Origin: Candidatus Avedoeria danica
GTDB lineage: Bacteria; Chloroflexota; Anaerolineae; Epilineales; Epilineaceae
DNA length: 64,000 nucleotides
Assembly (NCBI GenBank): GCA_016703025.1
Contig: JADJCV010000004.1
Coordinates: 299,164 to 363,163 of the forward strand
Direction: 5' to 3'
This document shows, one piece after another, positions 4,355-60,263 of the stretch (its first letter is position 1; each line of letters begins with the position of its first letter). Position numbers and translations under genes: made by a program. The notes below the pieces were generated by a model, which saw only the letters and a program-made list of their open reading frames with translations, did not search any database and had not been told where the DNA came from.

Positions 4355-4579
4355 ATGTTCAAAGTGACCGTCATGCTTCCCGACGAGATCCGCGACGCAG
4401 CCGGCCGACAGGGCAAGTCCGTGGAGTTGCTCGTCCAGCAACTCGTGGATGCGTATCTCGAGGAACGGGACGATGACGCGCTCGTGGAGGACCTCAATGC
4501 CCGCGAAGCGGCCGGTCTCTCACGCGTGCGCGAGTTCGCTGCGTTCGCAGCTGAATTGGGCGCCGACGAGAACGACTGA
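4355..4579 (+). CDS. Ribbon-helix-helix (CopG/ParD-like) antitoxin-type DNA-binding protein
   Basis: RBS GGAGGATAAGCGA then ATG. MFKVTVMLPDEIRDAAGRQGKSVELLVQQLVDAYLEE fits a beta-strand plus two-helix RHH fold, with an acidic C-terminal tail. Its stop overlaps the next ATG (ATGA). Confidence 0.5.
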   Translation: MFKVTVMLPDEIRDAAGRQGKSVELLVQQLVDAYLEERDDDALVEDLNAREAAGLSRVREFAAFAAELGADEND

Positions 4580-4704
4580 TGGCGACCTATCGCGTCGAGA
4601 ATGATCCTACCGTCGTCCAACCCGTGATCCTCCCCCTCCCCCAGACTTGGGGGAGGGGGTCGGGGGGTGAGGGCCTTAGGCCGAACGGCTGCGCGAAGTT
4701 CTGA
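4579..4704 (+). pseudogene. 41-codon ORF translationally coupled to RHH gene; possible toxin remnant interrupted by REP-like element
   Basis: ATGA overlap with the RHH stop. Reads MATYRVENDPTVVQ and then straight through the 58-nt hairpin repeat (…PVILPLPQTWGRGSGGEG…), which is not protein-like. Confidence 0.2.
4618..4675. repeat. 58-nt REP-like GC-hairpin element, copy 1 (CAACCCGTGATCCTCCCCCTCCCCCAGACTTGGGGGAGGGGGTCGGGGGGTGAGGGCC)
   Basis: Near-identical second copy at 55320..55377, with one mismatch in the loop. Perfect 12-bp stem CCCCCTCCCCCA/TGGGGGAGGGGG around a 4-nt loop. Confidence 0.6.
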
Positions 4705-4786
4705 CGGTTGTACGGAAGCTGCCGGGTCACCGCCATGATCAACGAACACGACCGCATCGCTCGGTCCCGAATCGCAACATGGAAGC

Positions 4787-4826
4787 GCCCGGACTTTCAA
4801 TATTGAGTCGTCCGGGCTTTCTATGG
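4787..4826 (+). terminator. Hairpin (GCCCGGAC-15 nt-GTCCGGGC) followed by TTTCTATGG; candidate intrinsic terminator
   Basis: 8-bp GC stem with a T-rich 3' flank, in an unusually AT-rich segment between convergent genes. Confidence 0.35.
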
Positions 4827-4967
4827 TGAAACCCAACCGGTTTCAATGTTGAAACGCCACACGAATCAACATTGCATTTCCAACCCACTCCACTTGCCGC
4901 GCCCGCCTCGCGACCGGCCACACGGTTGGACTGCGCTGGCTGCAAGCAATCCAATCGATCTCGCCGT

Positions 4968-7421
4968 CTATACCCGCCGTACGTCGCTGTCGTCCCCTGC
5001 CACCCCAACCACCCCCGGCAAGCCCTCCCGCGCCCGCTCCCGCGCCCGCGAGTACGCCGGCCGCCCCCCCCGCGGCTTCACCGCCAAATACGGCGCCGGC
5101 CACCACTGATCGTCGTGCCCGTACTTGGCCGCGGCATGAAGCGTGAGGTACGGATCGCTCAAATGCGGCCGCGCCATCGCGCACAGGTCGGCGCGGCCGG
5201 CGGCCAGGACGGTGTTCGCGTGGTCGGCATTTTGAATCGCGCCGACGGCCATCACCGGGATGCCGACCTCCTTCTTGATCCGCTCGGCGAACGGCACCTG
5301 GAACATCCGGCCGTAGTCCGGCAGCGCGTACGGCGCGGTCTGGCCGGCCGAGACGTCGACGATGTCGCAGCCGTGGGCGGCGAAGGCGCGGGCGATCGCC
5401 ACCGCGTCGTCGCCGTCGTTGCCGCCGTCGACCCAGTCGGTGGCGGAGATCCGCACGCTCATCGGCTTTGCGGCGGGCCACGCGGCGCGGACGGCGTCGA
5501 AGACCTCGAGCGGGTAGCGCAGGCGGTTCGCCAGATCGCCGCCGTAGTCGTCGACGCGCCGGTTGGACAGGGGCGATAGGAACGACGAGAGCAAGTAGCC
5601 GTGCGCGCAGTGCAGCTCGAGCATATCGAAGCCGGCGTCGACGGCCAGCAGAGCGGCGCGGACGAAGTCGGCCGTCACGGCCTCCATGTCGGCGCGCGTC
5701 ATCGCCCGCGGGACCTGGCTGAACGGGTGGTACGGCACGGCGGAAGCGGCCACGATGTCCCAGTTGTGCCACGGCAGCGGCTCGTCGTAGCCCTCCCAGC
5801 CGACGCGCGTGCTCGCCTTCTGGCCGGCATGGGCGAGCTGGAGGGCGATCGCGGCTTGGCTGTGGCCATGGACGAACGTCGTGATGCGCCGCCACGCCTC
5901 GGCATGCCGCTCGCTCCACATCCCGCAGCAGCCCGGCGTGATCCGCGCCTCGGGCGAGATGTCCGTCATCTCGGAGATGATCAACCCGGCGCCGCCGATC
6001 GCCCGGCTCCCGAGGTGGACCATGTGCCAATCGTTCGGCAGACCGTCTTCCGACAGGTACTGGCACATCGGCGAGACGACGATCCGGTTCACGAGCTCGA
6101 GGCTGCGCAGCGAAAGGGGCGCGAAGATCGGCGTGAGCGGCGTGCCGTCTCCGGCCGTCGGCGCGCCCTCGACGTCGCGGAACACCTGGCGCACGCGGCC
6201 GATGAACCCCTCGTCGCGGCGGAGGAGGTTGTCGTACGTGATCTGCTTGGAGCGCGTGAGGAGGTCGAACGCGAAGCGGACGGGGGGCACGTCGATCCGC
6301 CCGGCGACGGTCTCGAACCAGTGCTGGCTCGTCCGCGCCACGGTCTGCGTCCGCCCGACCTCGACCCAGCGCGCGTCCTCGTACGCTTGCAGCGCGCCCG
6401 TCACCCCCCCCGGCCCGTCCACACCGACGGCGCACAGCGCGTCGACGAGCGCGATCGCGCTCTCCATCGCCAGCTTCGTGCCGCTGCCGATCGAAAAGTG
6501 CGCCGTGTGGGCCGCGTCGCCGAGGATGACGACGTTGCCGTCGTGCCACTGGCGGAGCGTGACCGTCGGGAAGGACCGCCAGATCGACCGGTTGGAGATG
6601 AGCGGCGCGCCGTCCAGCCAGTCGGCGAACAGCGCTTCCCCGAACGCGACCGTCGCGGCCTCGTCGGCGGTGTCCAGCCCGGCGCGGCGCCACGTGTCCT
6701 CGTGGCACTCGATGATGAACGTGCCGAGATCCGCCTCGAACGGGTAGGCGTGGGCTTGGAACAGGCCCCACTGCGTCTCGGCGAACAGGAACGTGAAGGC
6801 CGTCATCGGCCGCGGCGTCCCGAGCCACGTGAAGCGGCACGCGCCCCAGCCGACCGTCGGCCGGAACGCGTCGCGGCGCGCCTCCCGCACCCGGCTGTTC
6901 ACGCCGTCGGCGGCGATCACGAGGTCGGCGCCGCCGTGCGTCGCGTCCGCGATGAACCGCTCAACGTCCTCGATGTCGCGCTCGAACTCCAGCCGCACGC
7001 CCAGCGCCCGGCAGCGCGCCTGGAGGATGACGAGCAGCTCGCGCCGCGCCAGCCCGCAGAACCCGTGGCCGGTGCTCGTCACGACCTCGCCGCCGACGTG
7101 GACGTCGATGTCGTCCCAGTACCGAAAGGCGCCCTCGATGGCCGCGTAGCTCTCCGGGTCCGCCTCGGCCAGCGTCTGAAGCGTCTCGGACGAGAAGACG
7201 ACGCCGAATCCGAACGTCACCTCGGGCGCGTTGCGCTCGATGACGGTGACTTCGTGGCGCGCGTCGATGCGCTTCAGCAGCAGCGCGGCGTACAGGCCGG
7301 CCGGGCCGGCGCCGAGGACGACGACCTTGAGCGGGCGGAGCAGGTTGGGGCGGCCGTCCGCAGGCCAGGAGCGCGATGCTCGGCCGAGGGCGGGCGTCGT
7401 CGGCGAGGCGGGGGCGAGCAT
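4968..7421 (-). CDS. Bifunctional FAD-dependent aromatic-ring monooxygenase / Old Yellow Enzyme-type NADH:flavin oxidoreductase (salicylyl-CoA 5-hydroxylase-like fusion)
   Basis: N-half: VVVLGAGPAGLYAALLL (GxGxxG), DLVIAADGVNSRVR, ILGDAAHTAHFSIGSGTKLAMESA (class A flavin monooxygenase motifs). C-half: LVNRIVVSPMCQYLSEDG…HLGSRAIGGAGLIISEMT…HGHSQAAIALQLAHAGQKAS (OYE TIM barrel). The track ORF extends to 7682, but its first ~90-130 aa are Pro/Ala-rich and look like read-through. Start uncertain (about 7300-7421). Confidence 0.8.
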   Translation of the reverse strand: MLAPASPTTPALGRASRSWPADGRPNLLRPLKVVVLGAGPAGLYAALLLKRIDARHEVTVIERNAPEVTFGFGVVFSSETLQTLAEADPESYAAIEGAFRYWDDIDVHVGGEVVTSTGHGFCGLARRELLVILQARCRALGVRLEFERDIEDVERFIADATHGGADLVIAADGVNSRVREARRDAFRPTVGWGACRFTWLGTPRPMTAFTFLFAETQWGLFQAHAYPFEADLGTFIIECHEDTWRRAGLDTADEAATVAFGEALFADWLDGAPLISNRSIWRSFPTVTLRQWHDGNVVILGDAAHTAHFSIGSGTKLAMESAIALVDALCAVGVDGPGGVTGALQAYEDARWVEVGRTQTVARTSQHWFETVAGRIDVPPVRFAFDLLTRSKQITYDNLLRRDEGFIGRVRQVFRDVEGAPTAGDGTPLTPIFAPLSLRSLELVNRIVVSPMCQYLSEDGLPNDWHMVHLGSRAIGGAGLIISEMTDISPEARITPGCCGMWSERHAEAWRRITTFVHGHSQAAIALQLAHAGQKASTRVGWEGYDEPLPWHNWDIVAASAVPYHPFSQVPRAMTRADMEAVTADFVRAALLAVDAGFDMLELHCAHGYLLSSFLSPLSNRRVDDYGGDLANRLRYPLEVFDAVRAAWPAAKPMSVRISATDWVDGGNDGDDAVAIARAFAAHGCDIVDVSAGQTAPYALPDYGRMFQVPFAERIKKEVGIPVMAVGAIQNADHANTVLAAGRADLCAMARPHLSDPYLTLHAAAKYGHDDQWWPAPYLAVKPRGGRPAYSRARERAREGLPGVVGVAGDDSDVRRV

Positions 7422-7608
7422 GGGCGGTCTCCGGGGCGGAACGATCGGAGCGGGCTGGGCGGCGGCCGGGGCGCGAGGTCGCCACGTGGGCGGGCGAGCC
7501 GGGGCCAGTAGGATAGCGAGCGGGCGGAGAGGGGCAAGGTGGACGATGGCGATCGCTGCCGCTGTGGCCGTGGCCGCGATTAGCACCAATCCGCCGCCAT
7601 GCGGCCGT

Positions 7609-7659
7609 GCGACGCTCATGTATGGGCACCCCTTGTGGGTGCCCATACATGAGCGTCGC
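7609..7659. promoter_or_regulatory. 51-bp perfect palindrome (23-bp arms GCGACGCTCATGTATGGGCACCC / GGGTGCCCATACATGAGCGTCGC, 5-nt spacer)
   Basis: Read directly from the sequence. Lies in the intergenic region upstream (minus strand) of the monooxygenase/OYE gene and downstream of the 7835..8590 gene. No U-tract, so an operator or cruciform is more likely than an intrinsic terminator. Confidence 0.5.
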
Positions 7660-7834
7660 GATGGACGACACGGCCGAAACACGGTGGTGTGGTATTACGA
7701 CGGCTCGCTTCACCGGCCGTCGCCGGTCGATGAAGCGAGCCAGGGTCTCGCGGGGTGGCGGTGGCACGTCGCCCTTGGCCCGCGCGCCGCACCGCTGACC
7801 GGGTCCCGCCGGACCCGGGCCGATGACCGGGCGG

Positions 7835-33158: not shown

Positions 33159-33286
33159 GACGTCGAGCGTAGTCCGGGCGGGTTAATGGGGCGGCGCGGC
33201 GTGGTTAATGGGCGGCGGCAGGGACGTTAAGGATGCTCACTTGACAGAACGGGGGCAGGAAGCGTGCGGTCGAAGACAAGGCTCCC

Positions 33287-35432
33287 CTACCGCCGCCCCC
33301 AAAACGCCCCCGCCGGACAAGGCAACCGCACCGCGATCGAGCTGTAAATCCCCGCCAACGCCTCCGCATCCGGCGCCACGAACGCATCCGCCGGCCGGCT
33401 AGCGATCGCCCGCAGCGCGTCCACGTCCAGGTCGTACCCGACGCCCACGGTGAACACCGTCACGCCCGCCGCCTTGGCGCGCGCCGCCTCCGCCACCGCC
33501 ACGTCCGCCGGCACCGGGTTCGCGCGGCCGTCCGTGAGGACGATCATCGCCGCGGCGTTCTCGGCCCTGCGCCGCGCCGGGTCGGCGAGCGCTTCGGCGG
33601 CGACGGCGACGGCGCGGTCGAGGCGGGTGAGGGATGCCGTGGTGATGGAGGCGAGCGCGGCGTCGAGGGCGGCGCGGTCATCGGTCAGCGGCTGGAGGAG
33701 CCAGGCGTCGCTGTTGAACGTGACGATCGCGGCCTGATCGCCCTCGGCCAGCCGGAGCGTGCCGAGGAACGTGCGGGCGGCGTCGACGGCGGCGGCGAGC
33801 TTGGTGCGGCCGGCGGCGGTGGGCTCGGTCATGGACGACGAGGCGTCGATGGCGAGGGCGATGTCGACGTGGCGCTCGGTGGGGGTGCAGGATTCGGTGA
33901 GGGCGAGGGGGAGGTAGACGGGGGCGGGGAGGGGTGTGGGGGTCGCGGGGAGGGTCGGCGTGGCGGTTGGGAGGGGTGACGGGGTGGCGGTGGCGCGATG
34001 GGACGGCGTGGGCGTTGGGGTGAGCGTGAGGGTGGTGGGATGCGGTGGGAGGGGGCGTCGGGGAGGGCGGGGGGGTGAGGAGGCCGTTGGCGGTCCAGAT
34101 GTCGCCGGGGAGGTTGTTGCGTACCGTTGAGGCGATGAGCATGCGGCGGAGTTCAAGGCGACGACCGCCATCCAGTACTTCGATGACGGCGAAGTCGCCA
34201 TCGCCATTCTCTTCGGACGAGGCGGCGATCAAGTATTGACCACTGGCGCTCCAGGCAACGGACAGTGATGGCCCACCGGGCGCGCGCGTGAAGGCGCGAT
34301 CACCAGGATAGATCATCGTGTAAGGAGCTCGAATCGGAAGTCGGGCAATCTCACGGGCGATATACGGTCGCTCAGCATCGTAGGCGCGGTCCGAAGGTGA
34401 CATTTCGACAAGTTCGTACACGGCAACGATCGTGTTGGCATGAACAGCCAGGAGGCCACGGTTCAACCACGCATTGTTGAACGCTACGCCTCCCACATAC
34501 TTGAAGTCCGGTGCAAGTGGCACAGTCTGTGCGGTGCGGCTCACAATGTCGATCGCCGCGATGTTTCCGGCGAATTGGCGATTCGTTACGACTAGGTTGC
34601 CGCGCGCGTTCAATGTGGCATGGAGGGCAGGTAGGGATCTGCCATGGCCATAGTAGAAGTGTGGCGGCGAGACGGCGGTCGGGAACGGGATGGGTTCGGC
34701 AAGTTCCGACCAAGTCGCACCATCCATTGACTCAATCGTTCCTCCGTCCGTCATGATGATGACGTGATCATCGCGCCCAGTGGGCAGAATCTCGACGGCG
34801 AGGTGTTCCGTGCGCGGACTGGCGCTCACTGTATCGAGGTCTGGACGCGATCCCCCTGTACTGCTGAATCGGATGCGGTCGATGCCGTAGGGTGGCTGCG
34901 GAATCAAGACATAGCCCTCGGGGCTAACCGCGTATCCTGCTCTGGCGGCAAGAAACGAACCATCAGGCATCGATGAAATCGCACCATACGATGCAAAGTC
35001 AGGGCCGCGCACACGGCCCTCAACAAAGCGACCAGACGAACTTGTGTCCGCGTTTGCAACGATAGCAAACGGTGAACAGGACTTGCTAATGTCGACTTGT
35101 TCTTCGCCAAACCCAAGTCCGCAACCAGAACCAGTTCCCGCGACGATTGTCGAAAGATCGGCCACGGCTGCCATTCGTCCAAGAATATTGTACGTCTCTC
35201 CGCGAAAAATGAGTGCCCCGATGTCGATGTTGTGAATAGTAATGGCTGACATTCCATCATCGGGACGCATGTTTGGATAAACATGGTCGTCGATTAGCAC
35301 CACCGCGCTCAGAGGATCAATGTATGTTTGAGCTCCCGCAATAGTCTCCGCCGCAAATACAATAGATGCAACCCATGCTCCGACAAGAGCGAGGGCCGAT
35401 GAGAGGTCAAGTCTAAGGCGGCACTTTCTCAC
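33287..35432 (-). pseudogene. Cassette A large gene: signal peptide + propeller-like domain + PT linker + VWA, frameshifted in linker (two track ORFs 33678..35432 and 33287..34207)
   Basis: GTG start MRKCRLRLDLSSALALVGAWVASIVFAAETIAGAQ. Compared with copy C there is a 1-nt insertion just after …TPPPTAS (~34045), shifting the VWA part into another frame. Confidence 0.5.
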
Positions 35433-35548
35433 GACAATTCCCCGCGACGGCTAGGTAATGGTGGCAGTGAGCCTCACATTCGCCCACTGCCACCATTACC
35501 CGTCAACGATTAACCATGACTGGCCTACAAGGTGTGAGCGGGTGCCCG

Positions 35549-36304
35549 TTAGTTGTAGATGATGTCCACTTGGGGGCCGCTGGCGCCTGCACACGAGTAT
35601 GTGCATTCGAACGCACCACTATCCGTCGTGCCGAACGTTTGACTGACCGGGCTGACTGATGTTCCTTCGGAGCAGAGCAAAGCGTCGATCTGGTTGCCGT
35701 CATCAACGCTCGTCGTCTCGTACTCCACACGCGACAGATAGCCGTTTACCTGTGGCTGGCAAGAGATGCTGCCGAACACCCCGTTGATCTTCGCCAGATC
35801 CACAACCAACTCGTAGCCCCAGCTGTTGTCGATGCTCATCCCGCTTCCGCAGCCGTATGTGGCGCAGACAGTCACGCCGTAGATCGGGCCGGTAGACGAG
35901 TTGCAGCCGGTGCATGACGCCGACCAACTGTCGGTGGAGTCCGACCAGTCAACATCCACGGTTACCTGGGAAGATGTGGTCGTTTGGCACCTGCAAGGTA
36001 GAGTCTCAAGCAATCGAGAGTCCCAATAGCCGGTGATTGTCCAGGACTCGCCCGTATCCGGCTCCACGGCGACCACGTCGTCTCCGCCCACTTGGTCGTA
36101 GTGGATGACATCGATTGCGGACACCTGGCGGCTAAAGTTGACGCAGTCATTCTGTCCGCAGTACTGTGCGTGGGCGACGTGCGGTGCCAGCGCCACCATC
36201 ACGGCCGCGGCCACCGCCGCAAGGCCAACACTAACGCGAATGGGAATCAGCCGACGCGATGTGCGTCCGATCGGGGGCGGGGAGGAAATAACGGTAAACA
36301 ACAT
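35549..36304 (-). CDS. Cassette A small gene: secreted Cys-rich ~225-aa protein (12 Cys), family unknown
   Basis: AGGAGG RBS. Signal MLFTVISSPPPIGRTSRRLIPIRVSVGLAAVAAAVMVALAPHVAHA|Q. Conserved blocks SAIDVIHYDQ, DVDWSDSTDSWSASCTGCN, ATYGCGSGMSIDNSWGYELVV, FECTYSCAGASGPQVDIIYN. Markedly lower GC than neighbours. Confidence 0.7.
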   Translation of the reverse strand: MLFTVISSPPPIGRTSRRLIPIRVSVGLAAVAAAVMVALAPHVAHAQYCGQNDCVNFSRQVSAIDVIHYDQVGGDDVVAVEPDTGESWTITGYWDSRLLETLPCRCQTTTSSQVTVDVDWSDSTDSWSASCTGCNSSTGPIYGVTVCATYGCGSGMSIDNSWGYELVVDLAKINGVFGSISCQPQVNGYLSRVEYETTSVDDGNQIDALLCSEGTSVSPVSQTFGTTDSGAFECTYSCAGASGPQVDIIYN

Positions 36305-36418
36305 GATCCACTACCTCCTGATTGAGCGGCCTGTAGGGGGCAGACCGCCCGGCGGGTTGCCGGAGGCGTGTACTTTGCCGTCACGGCGGTGGGGAATCCC
36401 GCGGGGATGGACGGGGCC

Positions 36419-36448
36419 AGTCTACCCGGCGATCAAACGCATGTCAAT
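36419..36448 (-). promoter_or_regulatory. Conserved sigma70-like promoter TTGACA-N17-TAGACT ~110 nt upstream of cassette-A small gene (copies also near 39740, 43030, 46300)
   Basis: Minus-strand read ccaTTGACAtgcgtttgatcgccgggTAGACTggcc. The same architecture with 17-nt spacers occurs in the other three units (-10 TAGACT or TAGGCT). Confidence 0.45.
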
Positions 36449-36573
36449 GGCCTTCCAAGAACTCGCGACACCGACACGACAGCCACTCCTGCCTTACCGA
36501 TACCATCGTTGCAGACCGGGGACATTGGCTCGATCCGCCCTGTAAGTTGCTTCCTCCGTCGCACAGCGAGGCG

Positions 36574-38742
36574 CTACCGCCTTCCCCAAAACACCCCCAC
36601 CGGACAAGGCAGCCGCACCGCGATCGAGGCGTAAATCCCCGCCAGCGCCTCCGCATCCGGCGCCACGAACGCATCCGCCGGCCCGCTCGCGATGGCCCGC
36701 AGCGCGTCCACGTCCAGGTCGTACCCGACGCCCACGGTGAACACCGTCACGCCCGCCGCCTTGGCCCGCGCCGCCTCCGCCACGGCCACGTCCGCCGGCA
36801 CCGGGTTCGCACGGCCGTCCGTTAGGACGATCATCGCCGCGGCGTTCTCGGCCCTGCGCAGCGCCGGGTCGGCGAGCGCCTCGGCGGCGACGGCGATGGC
36901 GCGGTCGAGGCGGGTGAGGGAGGCCGTGGCTATGGAGGCGAGCGCGGCGTCGAGGGCGGCGCGGTCGTCGGTCAGCGGCTGGAGGAGCCAGGCATCGCTG
37001 TTGAACGTGACGATCGCGGCCTGATCGCCCTCGGCCAGCCGGAGCGTGCCGAGGAACGTGCGGGCGGCGTCGACGGCGGCGGCGAGCTTGGTGCGGCCGG
37101 CGGCGGTGGGCTCGGTCATGGACGACGAGGCGTCGATGGCGAGGGCGATGTCGACATGGCGTTGGGAGGGGGTGCAGGATTCGGTGAGGGCGAGGGGGAG
37201 GTAGATCGGGGCGGGGAGGTGCGTTGGGGTGGCGGTGGCGGTCGATGATGGAACGGTGGTCGGCGTGAGAGTTGCCGGCACGGGAGTCGGTGTTGGTGTA
37301 TCGGTCGCGGTTGGCGTCAGCGATGATGTCCGTGTTGGTGTGGGGGACGAGGTGGGCGTGGCCGAGGGGCCGATTCGGCCATTGGCGGTCCAAATGTCGC
37401 CGGGGAAACTGTTGCTCGTGGTCGATGCGGCGAGCATGCGTCGCTGCTCGAGGCGGTGGCCGTTGTCGAGCACCTCGATGACGGCGAAGTCGCCGCCACC
37501 GACTTCTTCGGACGAAGCGGCAATGATGTACTGGCCGCTTGTGCTCCACGCGATGGAGTACGACGGGCCCATTGGGGCCTCAGTCAAGGCCCGTGAACGC
37601 CACCACTCGGCGTCGAACGGCCGTCCGATGGACAGACGTGCCACTTCACGCGCAACGTAGGGACGCGCGGGCTCAAACAATGGATCGCCAGCCGGTACTG
37701 CGGACAGTTCATACACTGCTATGAAGCTGTCAGCGTGTACTGCGAGCAGATTGCGATTCACCCAGCCATTGTTGAACGCGACGCCGCCCGTAAACGGAAT
37801 GTCGGGCGCTAGCGTTGCCGTCTGTGCGGTGCGACTCTCCAAATCGATGATGGCGATGTTACCGGCATTGAGGCGATTGGTCACGACGAGTCGTTCGTTG
37901 CCATTCATCGTGGCATGAAGTGCTGGAAGCGGTCGTCCGCGGCCATAGTAATGATTGTCAGGCGCGACAGCAGTCGGAAAAGGGATCGGGGGATCAATTT
38001 CGATCCAATTCGACGCATCCCTTGATTCTATCATGCCGCCATCGGTCATGATAACAACGTGGTCACCTTGTGCCTTGGGTAGAATCTCAATCGCAAGGTG
38101 GTCCATCTTTGGGCTAGAGCTCAACAACACCTTCTGAGGGCGATTCCCTATCGGCCGTCGAAATCGGACCCGGTCGATACCGTACGGCGACTCAGGCACC
38201 AGTGCGATGAATCCGGCGTCCACTTGACGGAAAGCGGCCCTGGCGAGCACAAACGATCCGTCGGGCAATGTGGCATTACCACCAAACCCGGCGAGGTCCC
38301 TGTCGAACAAGCGGGCGTCGGAGTATGGCGGATGGGACCCGGGACTGGCATCGGCAACGACGGCGAATGGAGAGCATGTGATGTCCATTACAGGCAGTTC
38401 GCGCGGGCGCCAGCCACAACCTTCTCCAGACCCAGCCACGATCATCGAAAGATCCTGAGTTGCAGACACCCGCCCAATTCCAACATACGATCTTCCACGA
38501 AACGTGGACACACCCGTTGGAATGTCATGGATCGTAATGGCTCCTTCGCCCTCACCATCACGCGCTTCGGGATGCATGGTGACGTCGATGAGCACCACTG
38601 TATCAACAGGATTCACATCAACAGGGCTATCTGGCGACTGAGCCCTTGCGTGATCAACAAGATGATGGAGAACTTGACCCATACACAAGATTGTAAACAT
38701 CCACGAAACAAAGACTGATGTATTCTGTCGACTCTTATGCAC
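36574..38742 (-). CDS. Cassette B large gene: secreted propeller-like / PT-linker / VWA protein
   Basis: GGGGAGAG RBS then GTG. Signal MHKSRQNTSVFVSWMFTILCMGQVLHHLVDHARA|Q. Divergent N-domain with a conserved VWA C-terminus. The track ORF start at 38817 looks like an upstream extension. Confidence 0.7.
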   Translation of the reverse strand: MHKSRQNTSVFVSWMFTILCMGQVLHHLVDHARAQSPDSPVDVNPVDTVVLIDVTMHPEARDGEGEGAITIHDIPTGVSTFRGRSYVGIGRVSATQDLSMIVAGSGEGCGWRPRELPVMDITCSPFAVVADASPGSHPPYSDARLFDRDLAGFGGNATLPDGSFVLARAAFRQVDAGFIALVPESPYGIDRVRFRRPIGNRPQKVLLSSSPKMDHLAIEILPKAQGDHVVIMTDGGMIESRDASNWIEIDPPIPFPTAVAPDNHYYGRGRPLPALHATMNGNERLVVTNRLNAGNIAIIDLESRTAQTATLAPDIPFTGGVAFNNGWVNRNLLAVHADSFIAVYELSAVPAGDPLFEPARPYVAREVARLSIGRPFDAEWWRSRALTEAPMGPSYSIAWSTSGQYIIAASSEEVGGGDFAVIEVLDNGHRLEQRRMLAASTTSNSFPGDIWTANGRIGPSATPTSSPTPTRTSSLTPTATDTPTPTPVPATLTPTTVPSSTATATPTHLPAPIYLPLALTESCTPSQRHVDIALAIDASSSMTEPTAAGRTKLAAAVDAARTFLGTLRLAEGDQAAIVTFNSDAWLLQPLTDDRAALDAALASIATASLTRLDRAIAVAAEALADPALRRAENAAAMIVLTDGRANPVPADVAVAEAARAKAAGVTVFTVGVGYDLDVDALRAIASGPADAFVAPDAEALAGIYASIAVRLPCPVGVFWGRR

Positions 38743-38863
38743 GCTACTTACTCTCCCCAAGTAGATGGCGGCCGCGGAGGCTGGACGCCAAGCAAGCCTG
38801 CCCCCGCGGCCGCACACTCATCTACTCACATCGGCACGTCCAGACGCCGGTACGGTGCCCAAT

Positions 38864-39613
38864 TCAGTCATACACGATGTCGACTTGTGGCCCGCTCGCC
38901 GCTCCGCACGAGAATGTGCACTCGAACGGGCCGGAGTCGGTAGTGCCGAACGCTTGACTGACCGGACTGACGGCAGTGCTCTCGGAACAGTACAGAGTGT
39001 TGATCTGGTTACCGTCGTCCACGCTGGTGGTTACGTACACGACGCGGTTGAGGAACGACGGGTTGGAGCCCCCGCCACAAGTGGACCCATTGTTTTCATC
39101 GACGCTCACGACTAGTTCGTAGCCCCAACCGTTGTCAATGCTCATGCCGCTGCCGCACCCGTACGTACTACAGATGGCGACTCCGCGCACTGGCCCAGCG
39201 AACGCATTGCAGCCAGTGCATGTGGCCGACCAGCCAGTGCTATCTGACCAGTCCACCGCTACATACACGACAGCGTTGCTGACAGCATCGCAGTCACACC
39301 AAATCGGATCACTGCCGAGTTGGTTCCAATACGCCGTTATCGTCCAGTGTTCGCCCGTGTTAGGCTCAACGGGTACAACCTCAGTATCGTCGATCTGGTC
39401 GTAGTGGATGACGTCGATGGCAGACACTTCGATTACAGCGGTTGAACAGTCATTGCGGCCACAGCCACCCTGAGCGTACGCGGCCTGCGGTGCCAGCGCC
39501 GCCATCACAGCTGCGGCCACCGCCGCAAGGCCAACGCTAACGGGGATGGGAATCAGCCGACGCGACGTGCGTCCGATAGGGGGCGGGGGAGGGGATATAA
39601 CGGTGAACAACAT
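38864..39613 (-). CDS. Cassette B small gene: secreted Cys-rich protein paralog
   Basis: MLFTVISPPPPPIGRTSRRLIPIPVSVGLAAVAAAVMAALAPQAAYA|Q. Same Cys pattern as the 35549..36304 gene. The track ORF extends to 39694 through in-frame leader sequence. Confidence 0.7.
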   Translation of the reverse strand: MLFTVISPPPPPIGRTSRRLIPIPVSVGLAAVAAAVMAALAPQAAYAQGGCGRNDCSTAVIEVSAIDVIHYDQIDDTEVVPVEPNTGEHWTITAYWNQLGSDPIWCDCDAVSNAVVYVAVDWSDSTGWSATCTGCNAFAGPVRGVAICSTYGCGSGMSIDNGWGYELVVSVDENNGSTCGGGSNPSFLNRVVYVTTSVDDGNQINTLYCSESTAVSPVSQAFGTTDSGPFECTFSCGAASGPQVDIVYD

Positions 39614-39883
39614 GATCAAGTACCTCCTGATACGGCGGCCTGATTGGGGGCAGACCGCCCGGCGGGTTTCCGGAGGCGTGTACTTTGCCGTCACGGCGGT
39701 GGGGGATCCCGCGGGGATGGACGCGGCCAGTCTAACCGGCGATCAAGCGCTTGTCAATGGCCTTTCAAGAATTCGCGACACGGAAACGACATCACTTCCT
39801 GTCTTTCGGAGGCTTCCATGGGAGACTGCGGAAATTGGCTCGATCCGCCCCGAAAGTCGCTTCCTCCATCGCAAGTCACTCAC

Positions 39884-42043
39884 CTACCGCCTTCCCCAAA
39901 ACGCCCCCGCCGGACACGGCAACCGCACCGCGATCGAACTGTAAATCCCCGCCAGCGCCTCCGCATCCGGCGCCGTGAACGCATCCGCCGGCCCGCTCGC
40001 GATCGCCCGCAGCGCGTCCACGTCCAGGTCGTACCCGACGCCCACGGTGAACACCGTCACGCCCGCCGCCTTGGCCCGCGCCGCCTCCGCCACCGCCACG
40101 TCCGCCGGCACCGGGTTCGCGCGGCCGTCCGTGAGGACGATCATCGCCGCGGCGTTGCCCGCACTGCGCCGTGCCGGGTCGGCGAGCGCCTCGGCAGCGA
40201 CGGCGACGGCGCGGTCGAGGCGCGTGAGGGATGCCGTGGTGATGGAGCCCAGCGCGGCGTCGAGGGCGGCGCGGTCGTCGGTCAGCGGCTGGAGGAGCCA
40301 GGCGTCGCTGTTGAACGTGACGATCGCGGCCTGATCACCCTCGGCCAGCCGGAGCGTGCCGAGGAACGTGCGGGCGGCGTCGACGGCGGCGGCGAGCTTG
40401 GTGCGGCCGGCGGCGGTGGGTTCGGTCATGGACGACGAGGCGTCGATGGCGAGGGCGATGTCGACGTGGCGTTGGGAGGGGGTGCAGGACTCGGTGAGGG
40501 CGAGGGGGAGGTAGATGGGGGCGGGGAGTGGTGTTGGCGTGGCGGTGAGGGAAGGCGTGGCGGTGGGGAAGGGCGATGGGGTGGCGGTGGCGAGGGGGGA
40601 AGGCGTGGGCGTTGGGGTGAGCGTGGGGGTGGGGGATGCGGTGGGCGTGGGCGTTGGGGAGGGCGGGGGGGTGAGGAGGCCGTTGGCGGTCCAGATGTCG
40701 CCGGGGAAGTTGTCGCGGGTGGTGGATGCCGTGAGCATCCGGCGGTACTCGAGCGTGCGCCCGTCGTCCATTACCTCGATGACCGCGAAATCGCCATCGC
40801 CGGTGTCCTCCGATGATGCGGCGATGAGATAGCGACCATCCGCGCTCCAGGCGATCGAGTACGCCGGGCCAAAGGGCGCGACGGTGAGCGCACGAGTTCG
40901 AAGCCAACTGGAGTTGATGGGCCGCCGAATGCTGAGTCGGGATAGCTCCGCGGCTTCGTACGGCCGCGCGGGATCGTACGAAGCATCGCTCGTCGGAACG
41001 GGAGACAGTCGGTATACAGCCACGTACTCGTCCGCGTGGACTGCCAGCAGATCATCGTTCAGCCACGCATTGTTGAATGCGACGCCGCCTGCGAATCGGG
41101 CGTCTGGCGCCAATGTTACGGTTTGAGCAGTGCGTGCCACCAAGTCGACAAGAGCGATGTCGCCGGCAATCAGTCTGTTGGTCGCGACGAGGCGCTCCTC
41201 GGAATTCATAGTTGCGTGGAGAGCGTGGATTGGGCGTCCCTTTCCGTAAGACATGTGATCGGGAGCCGTGGCCGTTGGAAATGAGATTGCTGCACCCATC
41301 GGCGACCAAGTATCGATGTTGAATGACTCGATGGTGCCGCCATCTGTAAGCACAATAATCGTTTTGTCATCTCGAGTAGGTAGAATTTCTACCGGAAGAT
41401 GATTTAGGTTGGAACTTGAGTCGACTCGTTCAATTTGCGGATAGTTGGAAATCGGACCCTTGAATCGTATGTGATCGAGGCCAAATGGTGGCTTCGGAAC
41501 GACGACATTAAACGGAATGTCGTGTCGAATCTGCTGTCCGGAACGAGTCATTATGAAGGTGCCATCAGTCAGCGCGGCAACGCCGCCGAACGGTGCATAG
41601 TCACGGTCGCGTGAACGGCCATCCACAAGGCGCGAAGATGAATCCAGCTTCCACTCTGCCAGGAGCGCGAATGGTTTGCACCTTTGGTCGAAGTCCCCTG
41701 CCCAAGTGGCCTCATCGACTCGAAACCCACAGCCCTCGCCCGGCCCGGCGATCAGCATTGACAAGTCGCTGGACGCCGCCATCCTTCCTAGTCCAAGATA
41801 CGATCGTCCGCGTACAAGCGATTCGCCGTTATCCACATTGTGAATCGTCAGCGCCCCTTGTCCATCATATGGCCGCGACAACGATCCCGTTAGCGTAACA
41901 TCAATGAGTACCACGGCTCTCACAAGATCAGGTAACGTTTGCGCGTGTACACGAATAACTACCGCAATAGCCAATCCAATCATCGACAGCCCGGTGACAA
42001 GGATTCCTGTGATCGCGTGGAGCCGAGGCGCCTTTCGATTCAT
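39884..42043 (-). CDS. Cassette C large gene: secreted propeller-like / PT-linker / VWA protein
   Basis: MNRKAPRLHAITGILVTGLSMIGLAIAVVIRVHA|Q. Intact single ORF of 719 aa. Confidence 0.7.
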   Translation of the reverse strand: MNRKAPRLHAITGILVTGLSMIGLAIAVVIRVHAQTLPDLVRAVVLIDVTLTGSLSRPYDGQGALTIHNVDNGESLVRGRSYLGLGRMAASSDLSMLIAGPGEGCGFRVDEATWAGDFDQRCKPFALLAEWKLDSSSRLVDGRSRDRDYAPFGGVAALTDGTFIMTRSGQQIRHDIPFNVVVPKPPFGLDHIRFKGPISNYPQIERVDSSSNLNHLPVEILPTRDDKTIIVLTDGGTIESFNIDTWSPMGAAISFPTATAPDHMSYGKGRPIHALHATMNSEERLVATNRLIAGDIALVDLVARTAQTVTLAPDARFAGGVAFNNAWLNDDLLAVHADEYVAVYRLSPVPTSDASYDPARPYEAAELSRLSIRRPINSSWLRTRALTVAPFGPAYSIAWSADGRYLIAASSEDTGDGDFAVIEVMDDGRTLEYRRMLTASTTRDNFPGDIWTANGLLTPPPSPTPTPTASPTPTLTPTPTPSPLATATPSPFPTATPSLTATPTPLPAPIYLPLALTESCTPSQRHVDIALAIDASSSMTEPTAAGRTKLAAAVDAARTFLGTLRLAEGDQAAIVTFNSDAWLLQPLTDDRAALDAALGSITTASLTRLDRAVAVAAEALADPARRSAGNAAAMIVLTDGRANPVPADVAVAEAARAKAAGVTVFTVGVGYDLDVDALRAIASGPADAFTAPDAEALAGIYSSIAVRLPCPAGAFWGRR

Positions 42044-42154
42044 GGACTTTCGACTCCTGAATGGCGGGAGCAGCGAAGACGCACTTTCGCCTCCGCTGCT
42101 CTCGGCTCACCGTAGTGACTCCGAATTCAATTGTCGACCTAGGTCAGCACAGCG

Positions 42155-42899
42155 TCAGTTGTAGACGATGTCCACCGTAGGGCCACTCGCGACACCGCAC
42201 GAATTGGTGCACTCGAACGGACCGCTGTCGGTAGTGCCGAAGGCCTGCGAGATTGGACTGACCGCAGTGCTTTCGGAGCACAATAGGCCATTGATCTGGT
42301 TGCCGTTGTCGACGCTGGTTGTCACGTACTCAACCTCCGAAAGGAAGCCGTCCACGGCCCCATTGCACGTCGTCCCGTTTTTCTCGTTCAAGCTAACAAC
42401 GAGCTCATAACCCCAGCTGTTGTTGATGCTCATCCCGCTGCCGCAACCATACGTTGTGCAGATCGTAACCCCAAATACGGGGCCGACGAACGCGTTGCAT
42501 CCTGTGCAGGTTGCAGACCAGCTGTTGGTGGCATCTGACCAATCCACCGCTACATCGACCTGAGCCGTGGCCGTATGATCGCAGTCACACTGCTCTGGCG
42601 CACCGTGGGTCGAGCCCCAATACGCAGTGATCTCCCAGTCTTCGCCAGTATTGGGCTCGACTGCGATCACTGTGGTGGGGTTGATCTGGTCGTAGTGAAT
42701 GACATCTATGGCGGAAACTTCAATCGTGCCGGGCGCACAATCGTCTTCGCCGCAGTATTGTGCGTACGCCGCCTGTGGTGCCAGCGCCGCCATCACGGAC
42801 GCGGCCATCACCGCAAGGCCAACGCTAACGCGGATGGGAATCAGCCGACGCGACGTGCGTCCGATCGGGGGCGGGGGGGGATATAACGGTAAACAACAT
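42155..42899 (-). pseudogene. Cassette C small gene: Cys-rich protein paralog with +1 frameshift in a C8 (plus-strand G8) tract just after the start codon
   Basis: ATG TTG TTT ACC GTT ATA TCC CCC CCC GCC… shows one extra C relative to the in-frame paralogs (TCC CCT CCC CCG), giving a stop after 24 codons. The track ORF restarts at internal MMAASVMAALAPQAAYAQ. Confidence 0.5.
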
Positions 42900-43169
42900 G
42901 ATCCAGTACCTCCTGATACGGCGGCCTGTATGGGGGCAGGCCACTCGGCGGGTTGCCGGAGGCGTGTACTTTGCCGTCACGGCGGTGGGGGATCCCGCGG
43001 GGATGGACAGGGCCAGTCTACCCGGCGATCAAACGCTTGTCAATGGCCTTTCGAGAACTTGCGACACCGAAACGACATCACGTTCTGCCTTATCGAGACG
43101 TCCGTTGCAGACCGGGAAAATTGCCTCGATCCGCCCTGCAAGTCGCTTCCTCCGTCGCAAGCCGAAGCG

Positions 43170-45317: not shown

Positions 45318-45430
45318 ATACTCCGGCGTTCATGGAGGGCGGCGGCGTTAGGCCGACAACTCGGCCACACGCCGTCGCCCCGATCAGTGACGTTCTCTCC
45401 AAGGCTCGCTGGAACTGACCGGTGGCCCGC

Positions 45431-46183: not shown

Positions 46184-46565
46184 AATCCAGTACCTCCTGA
46201 TAGGACAGCCTGATTGGGGGCAGGCCGCCCGGCGGGTTGCCGGAGGCGTGTACTTTGCCGTCACGGCGGTGGGGGATCCCGCGGGGATGGATGGACGGAG
46301 GGAAGCCTACAGGCACTCGGCGCGGGTGTCAATAGGTGCATGCGTTGTTGAACTGTGGAATCCAATGAATAATTTACAATTCCTTCTCGACATCCGCACA
46401 GTTGACGACGCTTTGAACTGCACAGAGTGCACGACACTCAGGCGCGAAAGGACATCTGACTGACTAGGTTCTCTTCAACTCTATCGAAGTTACAGTTCGC
46501 ATGCCTGTAACACTCGCGTGCAATCTGTCGCACATTGATCGCGCCGCAGTTCCACCGCGTGTCTC

Positions 46566-48554: not shown

Positions 48555-48672
48555 CCGTTCAGGTCATAGAAGCCGGAGCGCCATGGTGGCAATCAAGGTG
48601 ACGGAGAGCCACTCGGCCCCGCGAGCGGGTCGGGCGCAGAAGTGACGATGGCCAGTGGGCGACCATCGCGCG

Positions 48673-54149: not shown

Positions 54150-54370
54150 CCCGCCAAGTAGGGGCGGGGCCCCGTGCCTGCCCTCCCTCCACCCACCCCC
54201 CATTCCCCCAACGGCCCCCACGCCCACCCACCCGTCTCCCCCACGCCCACCTTGCCGTTCCCCCACCCAATGGCAGCATGCCCCGGTGCACCACCCCCCG
54301 GTCCCCCCGCTCATCGGCCACCCCCCCCCCGACGCCCCCGCCCCCGCCCCCGCCCCCCCCGTCACCATCA
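54150..54370. promoter_or_regulatory. Extremely C-rich (plus strand) divergent intergenic/5' region with C10 and C9 homopolymers between sufE and the DAO-family gene
   Basis: Read directly. Contains cccccccccc near 54321 and ccccccccc near 54353. Confidence 0.3.
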
Positions 54371-55329
54371 TCGGCGCGGGCGTGATCGGCCTGACCACCG
54401 CCATCCGCTTGGCCGAGTCCGGCCGCCGCGTCGAGGTCGTCGCCCGCGCCTTCTCGCCGCACACGACGTCCGACGTCGCGGCGGCCGTGTGGTACCCATT
54501 CCGGGCCGGACCGGCGGACGCGGTAGCCCGCTGGGCGCTCCGCTCGTACGCCGTCCTCGGCGCGCTCGCCGCCGACCCCGCGACCGGCATCGCGGTCGTC
54601 GAGGGCCGCGAGTACGCGCACGATATCGTCCCGTACGAGCCGTGGCACGACCACGTCGACGGCTTCCGGCAGCTCCCGCCCGGCGAAGTGCCCCCACCGT
54701 TTCGGCACGGCATCGCCTTCCGCGCGCCCGTCGTCCAGATGCCGCGCTACCTCGCCTGGCTTCACGAGCGCGCCACCGCGCTGGGTGTCGCCTTCCGCAC
54801 GCACGCGTTCGATGCGGGCGAGCTTTCAGCCCTGGTCGCCGCCGGAGCGGTGGTCGTCAACTGCACCGGCCTCGGCGCCCGCGAGCTCGTCGGCGACGGG
54901 ACGCTCTACGCGATTCGCGGCCAGATCGTCCGCGTCGCGCCGGGCCACGCGCCGCACTTCGTGCAGGCCACGCGGCTGCCGCAGCCCGTGACGTATGTCA
55001 TCCCGCGCGCCGACTGCACCGTGCTCGGCGGCTCGACGGACGCCGGCCGCGAGGACCTCGCGATCGATCCAGCCGAGGCGGCGGCGATCCGCGCCCGGTG
55101 CGTCGCGCTCATGCCCGCGCTGGCCGACGCCGCCATCCTCGGCCACGCCGTCGGCCTCCGGCCGGGCCGCGACGCGGTGCGGCTGGAGCGCGAGGACGTC
55201 GGCGCGGGGGTGATCGTCCACTGTTACGGGCACGGCGGCGCAGGCGTGACGTTGTCGTGGGGGTGCGCGGAGGACGTTGTGGCGCTCGTGAACGGTGCCC
55301 AGCGGGGCCTCCAATCCCTCAACCCGTGA
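54286..55329 (+). CDS. D-amino-acid oxidase (DAO) family FAD-dependent oxidoreductase
   Basis: VTIIGAGVIGLTTAIRL (Rossmann GxGxxG) and C-terminal HCYGHGGAGVTLSWG. Stop TGA lies inside the REP-like element. The Pro-rich first ~25 aa may be a start overcall. Confidence 0.8.
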   Translation: MHHPPVPPLIGHPPPDAPAPAPAPPVTIIGAGVIGLTTAIRLAESGRRVEVVARAFSPHTTSDVAAAVWYPFRAGPADAVARWALRSYAVLGALAADPATGIAVVEGREYAHDIVPYEPWHDHVDGFRQLPPGEVPPPFRHGIAFRAPVVQMPRYLAWLHERATALGVAFRTHAFDAGELSALVAAGAVVVNCTGLGARELVGDGTLYAIRGQIVRVAPGHAPHFVQATRLPQPVTYVIPRADCTVLGGSTDAGREDLAIDPAEAAAIRARCVALMPALADAAILGHAVGLRPGRDAVRLEREDVGAGVIVHCYGHGGAGVTLSWGCAEDVVALVNGAQRGLQSLNP

Positions 55330-55377
55330 TCCTCCCCCTCCCCCAAACTTGGGGGAGGGGGTCGGGGGGTGAGGGCC
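55320..55377. repeat. 58-nt REP-like GC-hairpin element, copy 2
   Basis: Same 58-nt element as copy 1 at 4618..4675 (one loop mismatch). Sits between convergent genes. Confidence 0.6.
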
Positions 55378-55401
55378 GCAGGCCGCCGACAGCTCAAAGC
55401 G

Positions 55402-56373
55402 CTAAGGCATCGGCCCCTTCTCGCACACGATCAGCGAGATCTCGTCGATGTAGTGCCAAGTGGGCACGTTCTCGCTCATTCGGCTCTTGATCTGCAGCTG
55501 GAAACGCTCCCAGCCCGGGCGGACGACGACGTGGCGCGTGACGTCATAGCCGAAGCGCTTCCACGTCGCCACCGGGGCGAGCGGCACGCTCTCCTCGCTC
55601 GCGACGGCGTCCTTCACCGCCTCCTCCACGCCGTCCTGGCTGAGGAAGATCGGCTGCAGCGTATCGTCGTCGCGGCGGTTGGGCACCTCCTCGGTCAGCA
55701 TCGTGAAGTCGAAGCTGAGCGAGGCCGAGATCAAGCGGGACGATTGGATCGTCGTCCAGAGGCGCAACGGTCGCCCGGGATGGGTGATCGTCTCGACGAC
55801 GCCCTGGCTGCCGCCGCCGAGGGCGGCGAAGTACTCGCCCCACGTGGGCCGCGGGATCGTGTTCGGTTCCGCCTTGCGGATGATCTGCGACAGCGTTCGC
55901 GCCCGGAAGCCGGACTGGAGGTCCCACTCGTTCGGGCCCTTCTCGAAGTCGCCGTTCGTCGTCAGCTCGCGGCAGACGCGGCCGTCCGAGGTCGGCACGG
56001 GCGTCAGCGTGGCGGTCGGCGGCGGGGTCTGTGTCGGCTCGTCCGTCGAGAAGATGCCCGGCGTCGGGGTGAGGGTCACGTCGAGCGTCGGCGTTGCGGT
56101 CGGCGGCGGCTCGGTGGGGGACGCGGTCGGGGCCGCTGCCGTCCGTGTCGCGGTCGGTGCCGCAGTGGCCGGGTGCGCCGTCGCGGCGGCCGGGATGTCG
56201 TTGCGGCTGGCGCCGCGCAGGACGAGCGGCAGATAGTTGAACACCCTCGACCCGTTCTGGGCGAACGTCGGCCGCTCGATCGAGCCGAGCGTCCCCATCG
56301 CCCCCAAAGCGACACCCGCGGCCCCGATCACGGCGGCCCGGCGGCAGATCTCCCACAAGCGACTCATCGCCAT
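55402..56373 (-). CDS. Secreted hypothetical protein (signal peptide, NYLPLVLRG motif, PT linker, ~220-aa C-terminal domain)
   Basis: MAMSRLWEICRRAAVIGAAGVALGAMGTLGSIERPTFAQ. Good GC3 bias. No family recognised. Confidence 0.6.
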   Translation of the reverse strand: MAMSRLWEICRRAAVIGAAGVALGAMGTLGSIERPTFAQNGSRVFNYLPLVLRGASRNDIPAAATAHPATAAPTATRTAAAPTASPTEPPPTATPTLDVTLTPTPGIFSTDEPTQTPPPTATLTPVPTSDGRVCRELTTNGDFEKGPNEWDLQSGFRARTLSQIIRKAEPNTIPRPTWGEYFAALGGGSQGVVETITHPGRPLRLWTTIQSSRLISASLSFDFTMLTEEVPNRRDDDTLQPIFLSQDGVEEAVKDAVASEESVPLAPVATWKRFGYDVTRHVVVRPGWERFQLQIKSRMSENVPTWHYIDEISLIVCEKGPMP

Positions 56374-56518
56374 CCCCCATGTTCGAACTCGACGGCGCCC
56401 AACCGGGCGCCGCTGGACGTCAGACACCGTTTCGACCCGCCCGGGTCGCAGCGCGCGCCACCGCTATACTGCCGCGCCGCTCGCCCGAGGGCAACATCGG
56501 CCGCGCGCCGTGCGGCCG

Positions 56519-60121: not shown

Positions 60122-60263
60122 GGGCGGCTCAGGTCCGTGAAGCGCGGGTCGAAGTGCGGGTCGACGCGCGCATGGGTACATCGGGTACAACCATCGGGCA
60201 CATGTCGAAGCGCGCACGAGTGTAGCGGATCGGGCAAGGCTATACTCGACCGCAGGAGAAACG

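Follow-up and report, generated by a model that had tools for sequence, protein, structure and literature searches.

Short G/C-rich repeats of the class called BoxC, PIT or TMECO, reportedly treated by Bachellier et al. in the 1990s and by Hoyne and Maher in 2000, are abundant in enterobacteria and cyanobacteria and have been tied to genomic instability, without a known origin, function or mobilising activity. They have also been described as “intrastrand-triplex motifs” (TMs) (Holder et al., 2015; PMC4666352). In Escherichia coli, they follow the pattern CCCTCNCCC-N3-6-GGGNGAGGG-N3-GGGNGAGGG, fold in vitro, as single-stranded DNA, into a stable intrastrand triplex that was undetected in vivo, are always intergenic and show no strand bias (PMC4666352). 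TM-containing loci were found to be unusually variable, and mobility-related genes were never found near TMs (PMC4666352). A 58-nt repeat, CAACCCGTGATCCTCCCCCTCCCCCA(G/A)ACTTGGGGGAGGGGGTCGGGGGGTGAGGGCC, occurs twice on the + strand of the 64,000-nt stretch of contig JADJCV010000004.1 analysed here (the window), at 4618-4675 (copy 1) and 55320-55377 (copy 2). On its block structure, it is a new Chloroflexota member of the known BoxC/PIT/G/C-rich class II intrastrand-triplex-motif class, and both window copies are apparent insertions relative to orthologous empty sites. It is quite probable that they are solo copies of a dispersed non-coding repeat of the triplex-motif class, for which we infer a selfish or neutral character, spread by copy-in and a DUF559 protein as trans-acting partner.

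The two copies are alike at 57 of 58 nt, and the sole mismatch, G4644 versus A55346, lies in the loop. As shown by a pattern search of the window, the composition of which is 70% GC, the 31-nt core was matched twice against 0.00 expected, and dinucleotide-preserving shuffles never yielded a match. From 5' to 3', the element consists of a C-stem CCCCCTCCCCC, a loop, a G-stem GGGGGAGGGGG, a TCG turn and a second G-block GGGGGTGAGGG; the coordinates of these parts and of the adjoining genes are given in Table 1. A preliminary description of the window had reported the pair at these positions, which was confirmed, and a perfect 12-bp stem, which holds for copy 1 (CCCCCTCCCCCA/TGGGGGAGGGGG, loop GACT); in copy 2, the A variant adds an A-T pair and the stem comprises 13 bp. 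The extent of 58 nt given there was too short, as both the similarity and the folded structure reach past it. The G/A difference falls at the loop-closing position, where copy 1 has G.T and copy 2 has A-T.

Table 1. Coordinates of the two repeat copies, their parts and the adjoining genes in the window
Feature	Position	Strand	Remarks
RHH (ribbon-helix-helix)/RelB-like antitoxin gene, 74 aa	4356..4579	+	100% identity to MBK6768312.1; weak NCBIfam antitoxin_RelB_like match, E=6e-4
Putative parE toxin pseudogene, 41-codon open reading frame (ORF)	4579..4704	+	reads through copy 1 in its one open + frame
Copy 1, 58-nt core	4618..4675	+	weakly conserved 3' continuation TTAGGCCG to ~4683; relaxed TMECO pattern matches 4634-4673
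Copy 1 C-stem CCCCCTCCCCC	4632..4642	+	11/11 Watson-Crick pairs with G-stem 1
Copy 1 loop AGACTT	4643..4648	+	family loop consensus A(G/A)NNTT
Copy 1 G-stem 1 GGGGGAGGGGG	4649..4659	+	
Copy 1 third block (G-stem 2) GGGGGTGAGGG	4663..4673	+	after 3-nt turn TCG; 10/11 positions compatible with purine-motif triads
Convergent 904-aa flavoenzyme gene (FAD_binding_3 + Oxidored_FMN)	4968..7682	-	bounds the copy 1 region
FAD-dependent oxidoreductase, DAO family	54286..55329	+	Pfam PF01266, E=6e-41; start codon uncertain
Copy 2, inserted unit relative to the empty orthologous site	55315..55378	+	64 nt; MAFFT alternative 76 nt, 55326-55401; reported core 55320-55377
TGA ending the DAO-family gene, inside the element	55327..55329	+	
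Copy 2 three-block motif	55334..55375	+	C-stem 55334-55344, loop AAACTT 55345-55350, G-stem 1 55351-55361, TCG, G-stem 2 55365-55375
Convergent gene, no Pfam match	55402..56427	-	stop (CTA on the + strand) kept directly 3' of the insertion

The third block mirrors the G-stem and could form G*G:C triads around a central T*A:T. Single strands of the element, DNA or RNA, would fold into a very stable hairpin, to which the third block would add a triplex, as in class members in vitro. In copy 2, the third block can be paired instead with a C-rich 5' arm, CCCTCAACCCG, in a lower stem CCCTCA...TGAGGG, and the extended hairpin comprises 64 nt (55314-55377; DNA fold of -26.9 kcal/mol, z=-5.4, ViennaRNA). 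The third block of copy 1 is also able to serve as the 3' arm of a lower stem. Folded as RNA, copy 2 gave z=-4.1 with ViennaRNA, which models hairpins only. At gathering thresholds, Rfam returned tRNA only, and a permissive scan of copy 2 gave sub-threshold generic microRNA-hairpin matches and no known RNA family. A G-quadruplex reading of the four G-runs was set aside, the block symmetry being better explained by the triplex and hairpin readings. The loop sequence CTTGG resembles the CTWGG context of T:G nicking by Vsr, and a link to the Vsr-like DUF559 proteins would be speculative.

The structural definition of the class (three blocks of 6-15 nt, loops of 1-6 nt, no more than one mismatch) covers the element, which has 11-nt blocks and loops of 6 and 3 nt, with 11/11 Watson-Crick pairs and 10/11 canonical triads in copy 1 and copy 2 alike. 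When the TMECO pattern was applied literally, its three 9-mers were found in order, with a second spacer of 7 nt rather than 3, an effect of the 2 extra nt in each stem; widening this spacer to N{3,7} brought in both copies and nothing else in the window. The element and BoxC/TMECO share the succession of a C-stem, a loop of 3-6 nt, a G-stem, a short turn and a second G-stem, with the same GGGTGAGGG in the third block. They also share the lack of strand bias, inverted (“palindromic”) arrangements and the presence of copies at variable loci. Tens of dispersed copies per genome, as in the class, are likely for the element, with at least 11 and 13 in two related MAGs. The stems differ in length (11 nt here, 9 nt there), and the host belongs to Chloroflexota, a phylum that is unmentioned in PMC4666352. 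A further difference is that in-frame genic copies occur here, whereas TMECO is always intergenic; this location was stated as a property of the E. coli set, rather than as part of the structural definition of the class. Moreover, DUF559 genes are flanked by the element here, and PMC4666352 never mentions an endonuclease or DUF559.

The host is an Ardenticatenales (Chloroflexota) metagenome-assembled genome (MAG); the antitoxin and DAO proteins of the window are identical or near-identical to MBK6768312.1 and MBK6768341.1 of an Ardenticatenales MAG. A scan for the exact core in one genome per species gave 27 loci. Copies with the same turn and third block were confined to two Ardenticatenales MAGs, SJ541 (at least 11) and cluster3_bin.261 (at least 13), and the other matches were to the generic palindrome only. 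A metagenome scan gave 28 further loci, and 42 distinct copies were left after removal of duplicates; these counts refer to related MAGs and metagenomes, the window itself holding two copies. The preliminary description had proposed a dispersed palindromic repeat family, and the census bears this out. No copy was found in viral contigs. The family core is almost invariant. In 37 of the 42 copies, 11/11 Watson-Crick pairs go together with 10/11 canonical triads, and three copies reach 11/11 triads. At the centre of the third strand, 25 copies have T and 15 have A, both of which are allowed opposite A. In many copies, the core is then followed by NNAGGCCG. Most Ardenticatenales copies have the C-rich 5' arm and the Ga0172368 copies lack it, and the lower stem was accordingly rejected as a defining part. 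Three contigs of the window's species end within the element, as short-read assemblies are expected to do at repeats.

That such hairpins are immobile, each being formed anew on the spot by mutation or slippage in a genome of 70% GC, could be argued from the composition of the window and from the generic CCCCCTCCCCC...GGGGGAGGGGG palindromes found in unrelated phyla. However, the 57 of 58 nt shared between the window copies include the non-palindromic loop, turn and third block, for which the shuffles gave no match. The same 47-nt core, ~90% identical, was also found in an organism of 62% GC within AT-rich local sequence (L039, L041), which is better explained by constraint on the sequence or by horizontal movement than as an artefact of local composition. 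In addition, hairpins around DUF559 genes were oriented C-first in 89 cases and G-first in 2, the window background being 2 in 64 kb. Local origin is effectively refuted by the shuffling controls and the cross-genome identity, and we give it practically no chance.

The comparison of orthologous loci that the preliminary description had proposed was made at both copies, and sites without the element were found at each. At copy 2, the syntenic order in SJ541 (L073) comprises SufE, DAO (86% aa identity), a convergent 321-aa gene and VWA genes, without the element. There, the DAO gene ends in a TAA of its own, and the two convergent genes overlap by 4 nt at their stops (CTAA). The 64-nt inserted interval of copy 2 coincides with the extended hairpin, and under either alignment of the empty site, the last ~4-5 codons and the stop codon of the window DAO gene are supplied by the element; the C-termini of the DAO orthologs differ. 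Copy 2 is thus best described as a probable insertion onto the overlapping stop codons of two convergent genes, after which the DAO gene came to end at the TGA of the element. The preliminary description had the TGA at 55327 ending the DAO-family gene, which agrees with the ORF of 54286-55329. It had also placed the repeat between convergent genes, which is true of copy 2 and of copy 1 too, and had suggested insertion at the 3' ends of ORFs, for which the SJ541 locus with its overlapping stops speaks.

For copy 1, no empty site was found within the window's species, in which all 6 of 6 contigs carry the element, and a more distant relative was used (L075). This contig has an 81%-identical antitoxin gene followed by an intact 92-aa ParE (555-833; precomputed Pfam PF05016, ParE_toxin) and a small gene, with no element. 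The 41-codon ORF of the window does read through copy 1 as had been described; it begins at the last base of the antitoxin stop codon, with a 1-nt overlap, TGATG, in place of the ATGA coupling previously given. In this ORF, Met-Ala is fused to YRVENDPTVV, which corresponds to residues ~64-73 of ParE (YRVEDDPPLV; 24/30 nt, 7/10 aa), the match to the N-terminal segment of ParE being 19/30 nt only. The joining of a C-terminal ParE segment to Met-Ala therefore indicates an internal deletion of ~180 nt (~60 codons). Homology to L075 resumes firmly at 4725. The 41-aa product had no Pfam or NCBIfam match, and only ~10 of its residues could be aligned to the intact ParE of L075. At 41 aa, it falls short of the ~90 aa of a ParE_toxin domain and is, by all appearances, a pseudogene remnant. 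The toxin ORF proposed in the preliminary description thus stands as a toxin remnant, in view of the intact ParE of L075; it was not merely interrupted, since ~60 internal codons were also lost. Copy 1 is accordingly read as a likely insertion in the 3' part of a parE gene that was deleted beforehand or later. A truncated start of the small gene (MINEHDRIARS...stop) lies at 4735-4806, and an intact version follows parE in L075 at 846-1052; the truncation makes 4580-4960 look like a decaying accessory islet.

Target-site duplication was not evident at either empty-site comparison. This bears on the possibility that the repeat is a miniature inverted-repeat transposable element (MITE), a deletion derivative of an insertion sequence with a DDE transposase, moved by cut-and-paste. 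In cluster3_bin.261, the element does lie within a larger unit of 143 nt, which has terminal inverted repeats of 7 nt (CTAAGCA...TGCTTAG) and is flanked by C-TA...TA-G on at least four contigs. The element is, however, a passenger of this composite, the 58-nt core lacks such terminal inverted repeats, and no recurrent transposase was found nearby, which together with the missing duplications leaves a MITE very improbable. The 143-nt units lie at L004 310-456, L009 38-184, L022 6535-6680 and L027 3973-4115, often at contig ends.

At least six distinct copies, identified by periodicity of the GC content at third codon positions (GC3), are each embedded in one uninterrupted ORF, with coding signal and GC3 of ~0.9 to either side. 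The hosts are chorismate synthase (mid-domain), SelA, DnaE, a sulfatase, a TMEM260-like glycosyltransferase and a bPH_2 protein. In these genes, which are otherwise intact, the Pfam domains run continuously across the copies, and the insertion in the sulfatase gene was found in two independent assemblies (L014 and L057). When compared with solved structures, AroC has ~31 and SelA ~22 extra residues exactly at the element. The predicted peptides depend on strand and frame (ILPLPQTWGRGSGGEGL, GPHPPTPSP..GGGGG, RPSPPDPLPQVWGRGR or ALTPRPPPPRLGEGED), and those such as ILPLPQTWGRGSGGEG or GPHPPTPSP are predicted for the intragenic copies in AroC, SelA or the sulfatase. Stop codons occur in two of the six frames only (the + strand TGAs at element nt 8-10 and 51-53); because four frames are stop-free, the element survives inside genes or at gene ends. 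Other copies of the family overlap the 3' ends of genes, as copy 2 does. Rickettsia palindromic elements (RPEs; PMC10969869) are comparable in that they too are in-frame palindromic inserts in unrelated metabolic genes, where they are translated as extra peptide segments, the genes remaining unbroken. RPEs differ in being ~100-150 bp, Rickettsia-specific and AT-rich, as against inserts here that add ~22-31 residues; no sequence homology exists, and the likeness is behavioural only. In-frame copies in essential genes, adding predicted peptide segments as RPEs do, go beyond the published description of the class, and the designation of the repeat as intergenic in the preliminary description has to be given up for these copies.

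High-GC bacteria may use terminators without a U-tract. The preliminary description had proposed a terminator or mRNA-stability element. A host-serving role of this kind, be it factor-independent termination or the stabilising of mRNA 3' ends between convergent genes, would suit the window copies, both of which directly follow a stop codon and have a convergent gene next to them; the hairpin, with its 12-bp G-C stem, is also very stable as RNA (copy 2 z=-4.1). A terminator scan, however, found no site at either window copy, and the hairpin is followed by TCGGGGGG with no T-tract. In tandem gene contexts, six copies were sense and six antisense, and copies were found between divergent gene starts too, these gene calls being crude. 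In-frame copies in both orientations, the lack of orientation bias and the lack of a T-tract argue against a terminator role, the more so as termination within aroC, selA, dnaE or the sulfatase gene would be harmful. The SJ541 ortholog, moreover, does without the element, and class members of E. coli were reported to have neither promoter nor terminator activity (PMC4666352, citing its ref. 41). A terminator or mRNA-stability role is, on balance, improbable, and the element would be selfish or neutral DNA rather than a terminator.

The neighbours of family copies were diverse housekeeping genes. In SJ541 (L012) and cluster3_bin.261 (L025), an inverted pair of exactly this element, with the third blocks outward, encloses a small DUF559 gene (PF04480, E=7e-34), and the two proteins are ~70% identical. 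The same inverted-pair flanking was found for a 44%-identical DUF559 protein in L041 (= L055) and for a DUF559 gene in L086, the source sample of which also yielded a contig of the window's species. In L086, the right-hand repeat (1040-1150) has a ~46-nt insertion in its hairpin loop, so that the repeats themselves can be insertion targets or decay. A DUF559 protein, MBK6770198.1, is also annotated in the Ardenticatenales MAG, with an accession number that neighbours those of the window proteins. Inverted doublets without a gene were observed in L034 (75-nt spacer), L039 (44 nt) and L049 (130 nt).

Loci were also sampled by the DUF559 protein alone (n=16: 7 from protein-homology searches and viral contigs, 8 from plasmids or chromids, and E. 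coli ycjD). All 16 adjoin hairpin repeats of the C-run/G-run plan, which in most cases stand on either side of the gene and are often arranged as inverted pairs; under a strict automatic criterion, 14 of the 16 loci count, 11 of them with repeats on both sides. The stems are imperfect or the third block degenerate at the weaker loci (e.g. Neisseria). Hairpin density was 4.0 per kb within 200 nt of DUF559 and 0.8 per kb further off. The loci represent at least five phyla, with members of Gemmatimonadota, Chloroflexota (Thermomicrobiales), Cyanobacteriota, alpha-, beta- and gamma-Proteobacteria and Deinococcota, as well as viral contigs, the last with three DUF559 loci only. DUF559 cassettes interrupt the suf, cas4-cas1 and hpa operons; in L064 (1447-2141), DUF559 and its flanking triplex-type repeats lie between cas4 and cas1 of a CRISPR-Cas adaptation module. 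In a Caulobacteraceae MAG (L017, 2840-3290), a DUF559 gene that is possibly 5'-degraded is flanked by CCCTCCCCC...GGGGGAGGG hairpins and sits between apparent imuB and dnaE2 genes of an error-prone polymerase cassette, as identified by eye from translated ends. DUF559 had no significant defence-system match in PADLOC.

In E. coli, the repeat beside ycjD is BoxC/PIT/TMECO, which occurs at a median of 18 places per genome. The ycjD gene is present in 3378 of 5426 complete E. coli genomes (62%); those without it have the eefRABCD efflux operon at that locus, with no clean empty-site boundaries. In the ycjD-fabI interval of E. coli K-12 (L076, 3660-3930), a degenerate triplex-type repeat stands at the ycjD stop codon, followed by a diverged duplicate of the last ~40 nt of ycjD and then by a full BoxC/TMECO copy.

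The element shares with the REP/REPIN-RAYT system (Bertels and Rainey; PMC3337134) short imperfect palindromes that occur as singlets and short-spacer inverted doublets, folding as a single strand, a small single-copy gene between inverted copies and the absence of target duplication. By this analogy, the element would spread by copy-in, the folded single strand being the form acted upon, and the small DUF559 nuclease, of the Vsr-like PD-(D/E)XK type, would be its trans-acting partner, flanked by the element in the way that REPs/REPINs flank RAYT. The DUF559 profile matched PDB 3hrl (E=7e-34) and the homing endonuclease I-Bth0305I (3r3p, E=5e-6); DUF559 shares the fold family of these proteins and of Vsr, and differs in having no intron or intein context.

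The resemblance could also be taken literally: a RAYT, an HUH tyrosine transposase of the IS200-like kind, would be encoded elsewhere in the genome and would mobilise the repeats as a classical REP/REPIN family. The singlets, the inverted doublets of L034, L039 and L049, the imperfect palindromes and the lack of target duplication are as in REP/REPIN (PMC3337134), but the gene flanked by inverted copies is DUF559, a PD-(D/E)XK Vsr-like nuclease, and not RAYT. Furthermore, among 135 ORFs within 1.2 kb of copies, no family occurred more than twice and no transposase was among the top families. The third G-block and the tolerance of coding regions also set the element apart from REP/REPIN, its three-block grammar being that of BoxC/TM, and mobilisation by a RAYT is extremely improbable.

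Another explanation turns the relation round: DUF559 would be a homing-type selfish gene that cuts pre-existing empty doublets, repair then copying the gene in by means of the flanking repeats, and the solo repeats of the window would owe DUF559 nothing. The constant position of the gene between two inverted copies, the existence of gene-less short-spacer doublets and the profile match to I-Bth0305I would be expected of such a gene, as would cassettes inside the suf, cas4-cas1 and hpa operons. The absence of ycjD from part of the E. coli genomes and the duplicated 3' end beside it point the same way. The interior of the L041 cassette is, in addition, AT-rich, with flanking repeats of the host's GC-rich type. 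That repeat type does not simply follow protein identity slightly favours homing, and fits homing at least as well as a mobiliser. On the other hand, homing leaves the origin and spread of the repeats unexplained, and cleavage by DUF559 is itself a prediction. DUF559 is usually single-copy per replicon, unlike an active homing gene with many targets, and its single copy among many repeats slightly favours a RAYT-like role. We regard homing as rather unlikely, although the data do not separate DUF559 as a trans-acting nuclease of the REPIN-RAYT kind from a homing gene that exploits repeat doublets.

Several observations weigh against the favoured reading of the window copies as solo, selfish or neutral repeats served by DUF559. 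The window has two copies only and no DUF559 gene (tblastn and hidden Markov model searches). Mobility is deduced from presence and absence between species that are 81-86% identical in protein, for which deletion in the relatives is an alternative, and no recent transposition was observed in the compared species. At the right-hand junctions, there is microhomology between the element end and the target, which makes the insertion boundaries uncertain by 10-20 nt. The link between DUF559 and the repeats is purely positional; L012, L025, L041 and L017 were ascertained through the repeat itself, and protein identity does not track repeat identity in the small sample available (L041 versus L063). 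A nuclease alone, moreover, would not be able to perform strand transfer. The gene calls on which the in-frame and orientation results depend were GC3-based, stop-to-stop and crude. Lastly, Holder et al. found no function for the repeats in E. coli, where the triplex was not detected in vivo (PMC4666352).

For the window, the outcome is modest: a probable selfish repeat has remodelled the C-terminus and stop codon of one gene and marks a decaying toxin-antitoxin islet. A wider proposal, to which we give somewhat less than an even chance, is that BoxC/PIT/triplex-motif repeats are the cis partners of widespread DUF559 nucleases, in a REPIN-RAYT-like or homing-type selfish system that would range from Chloroflexota and Cyanobacteriota to E. 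coli (ycjD). DUF559 genes make up a large family of unknown function, and their consistent nesting between such repeats in different phyla also goes beyond the published description. The open-access papers searched contained nothing linking DUF559 or ycjD to such repeats, and an earlier report elsewhere is possible. If the association is functional, it would provide a role for DUF559 and a testable mechanism for repeat spread and locus instability.

Apart from the repeat, the minus strand of the window carries five tandem paralogous genes at 33280-48560, with a period of ~3.3 kb (3287/3310/3286/3396 nt) and blocks that are 92-100% identical. The encoded proteins, of ~660-750 aa, have a VWA domain at the C-terminus, and the genes contain Pro/Thr-rich microrepeats of 12 nt. 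More VWA genes are located at 48952-52848 and 56519-60607.

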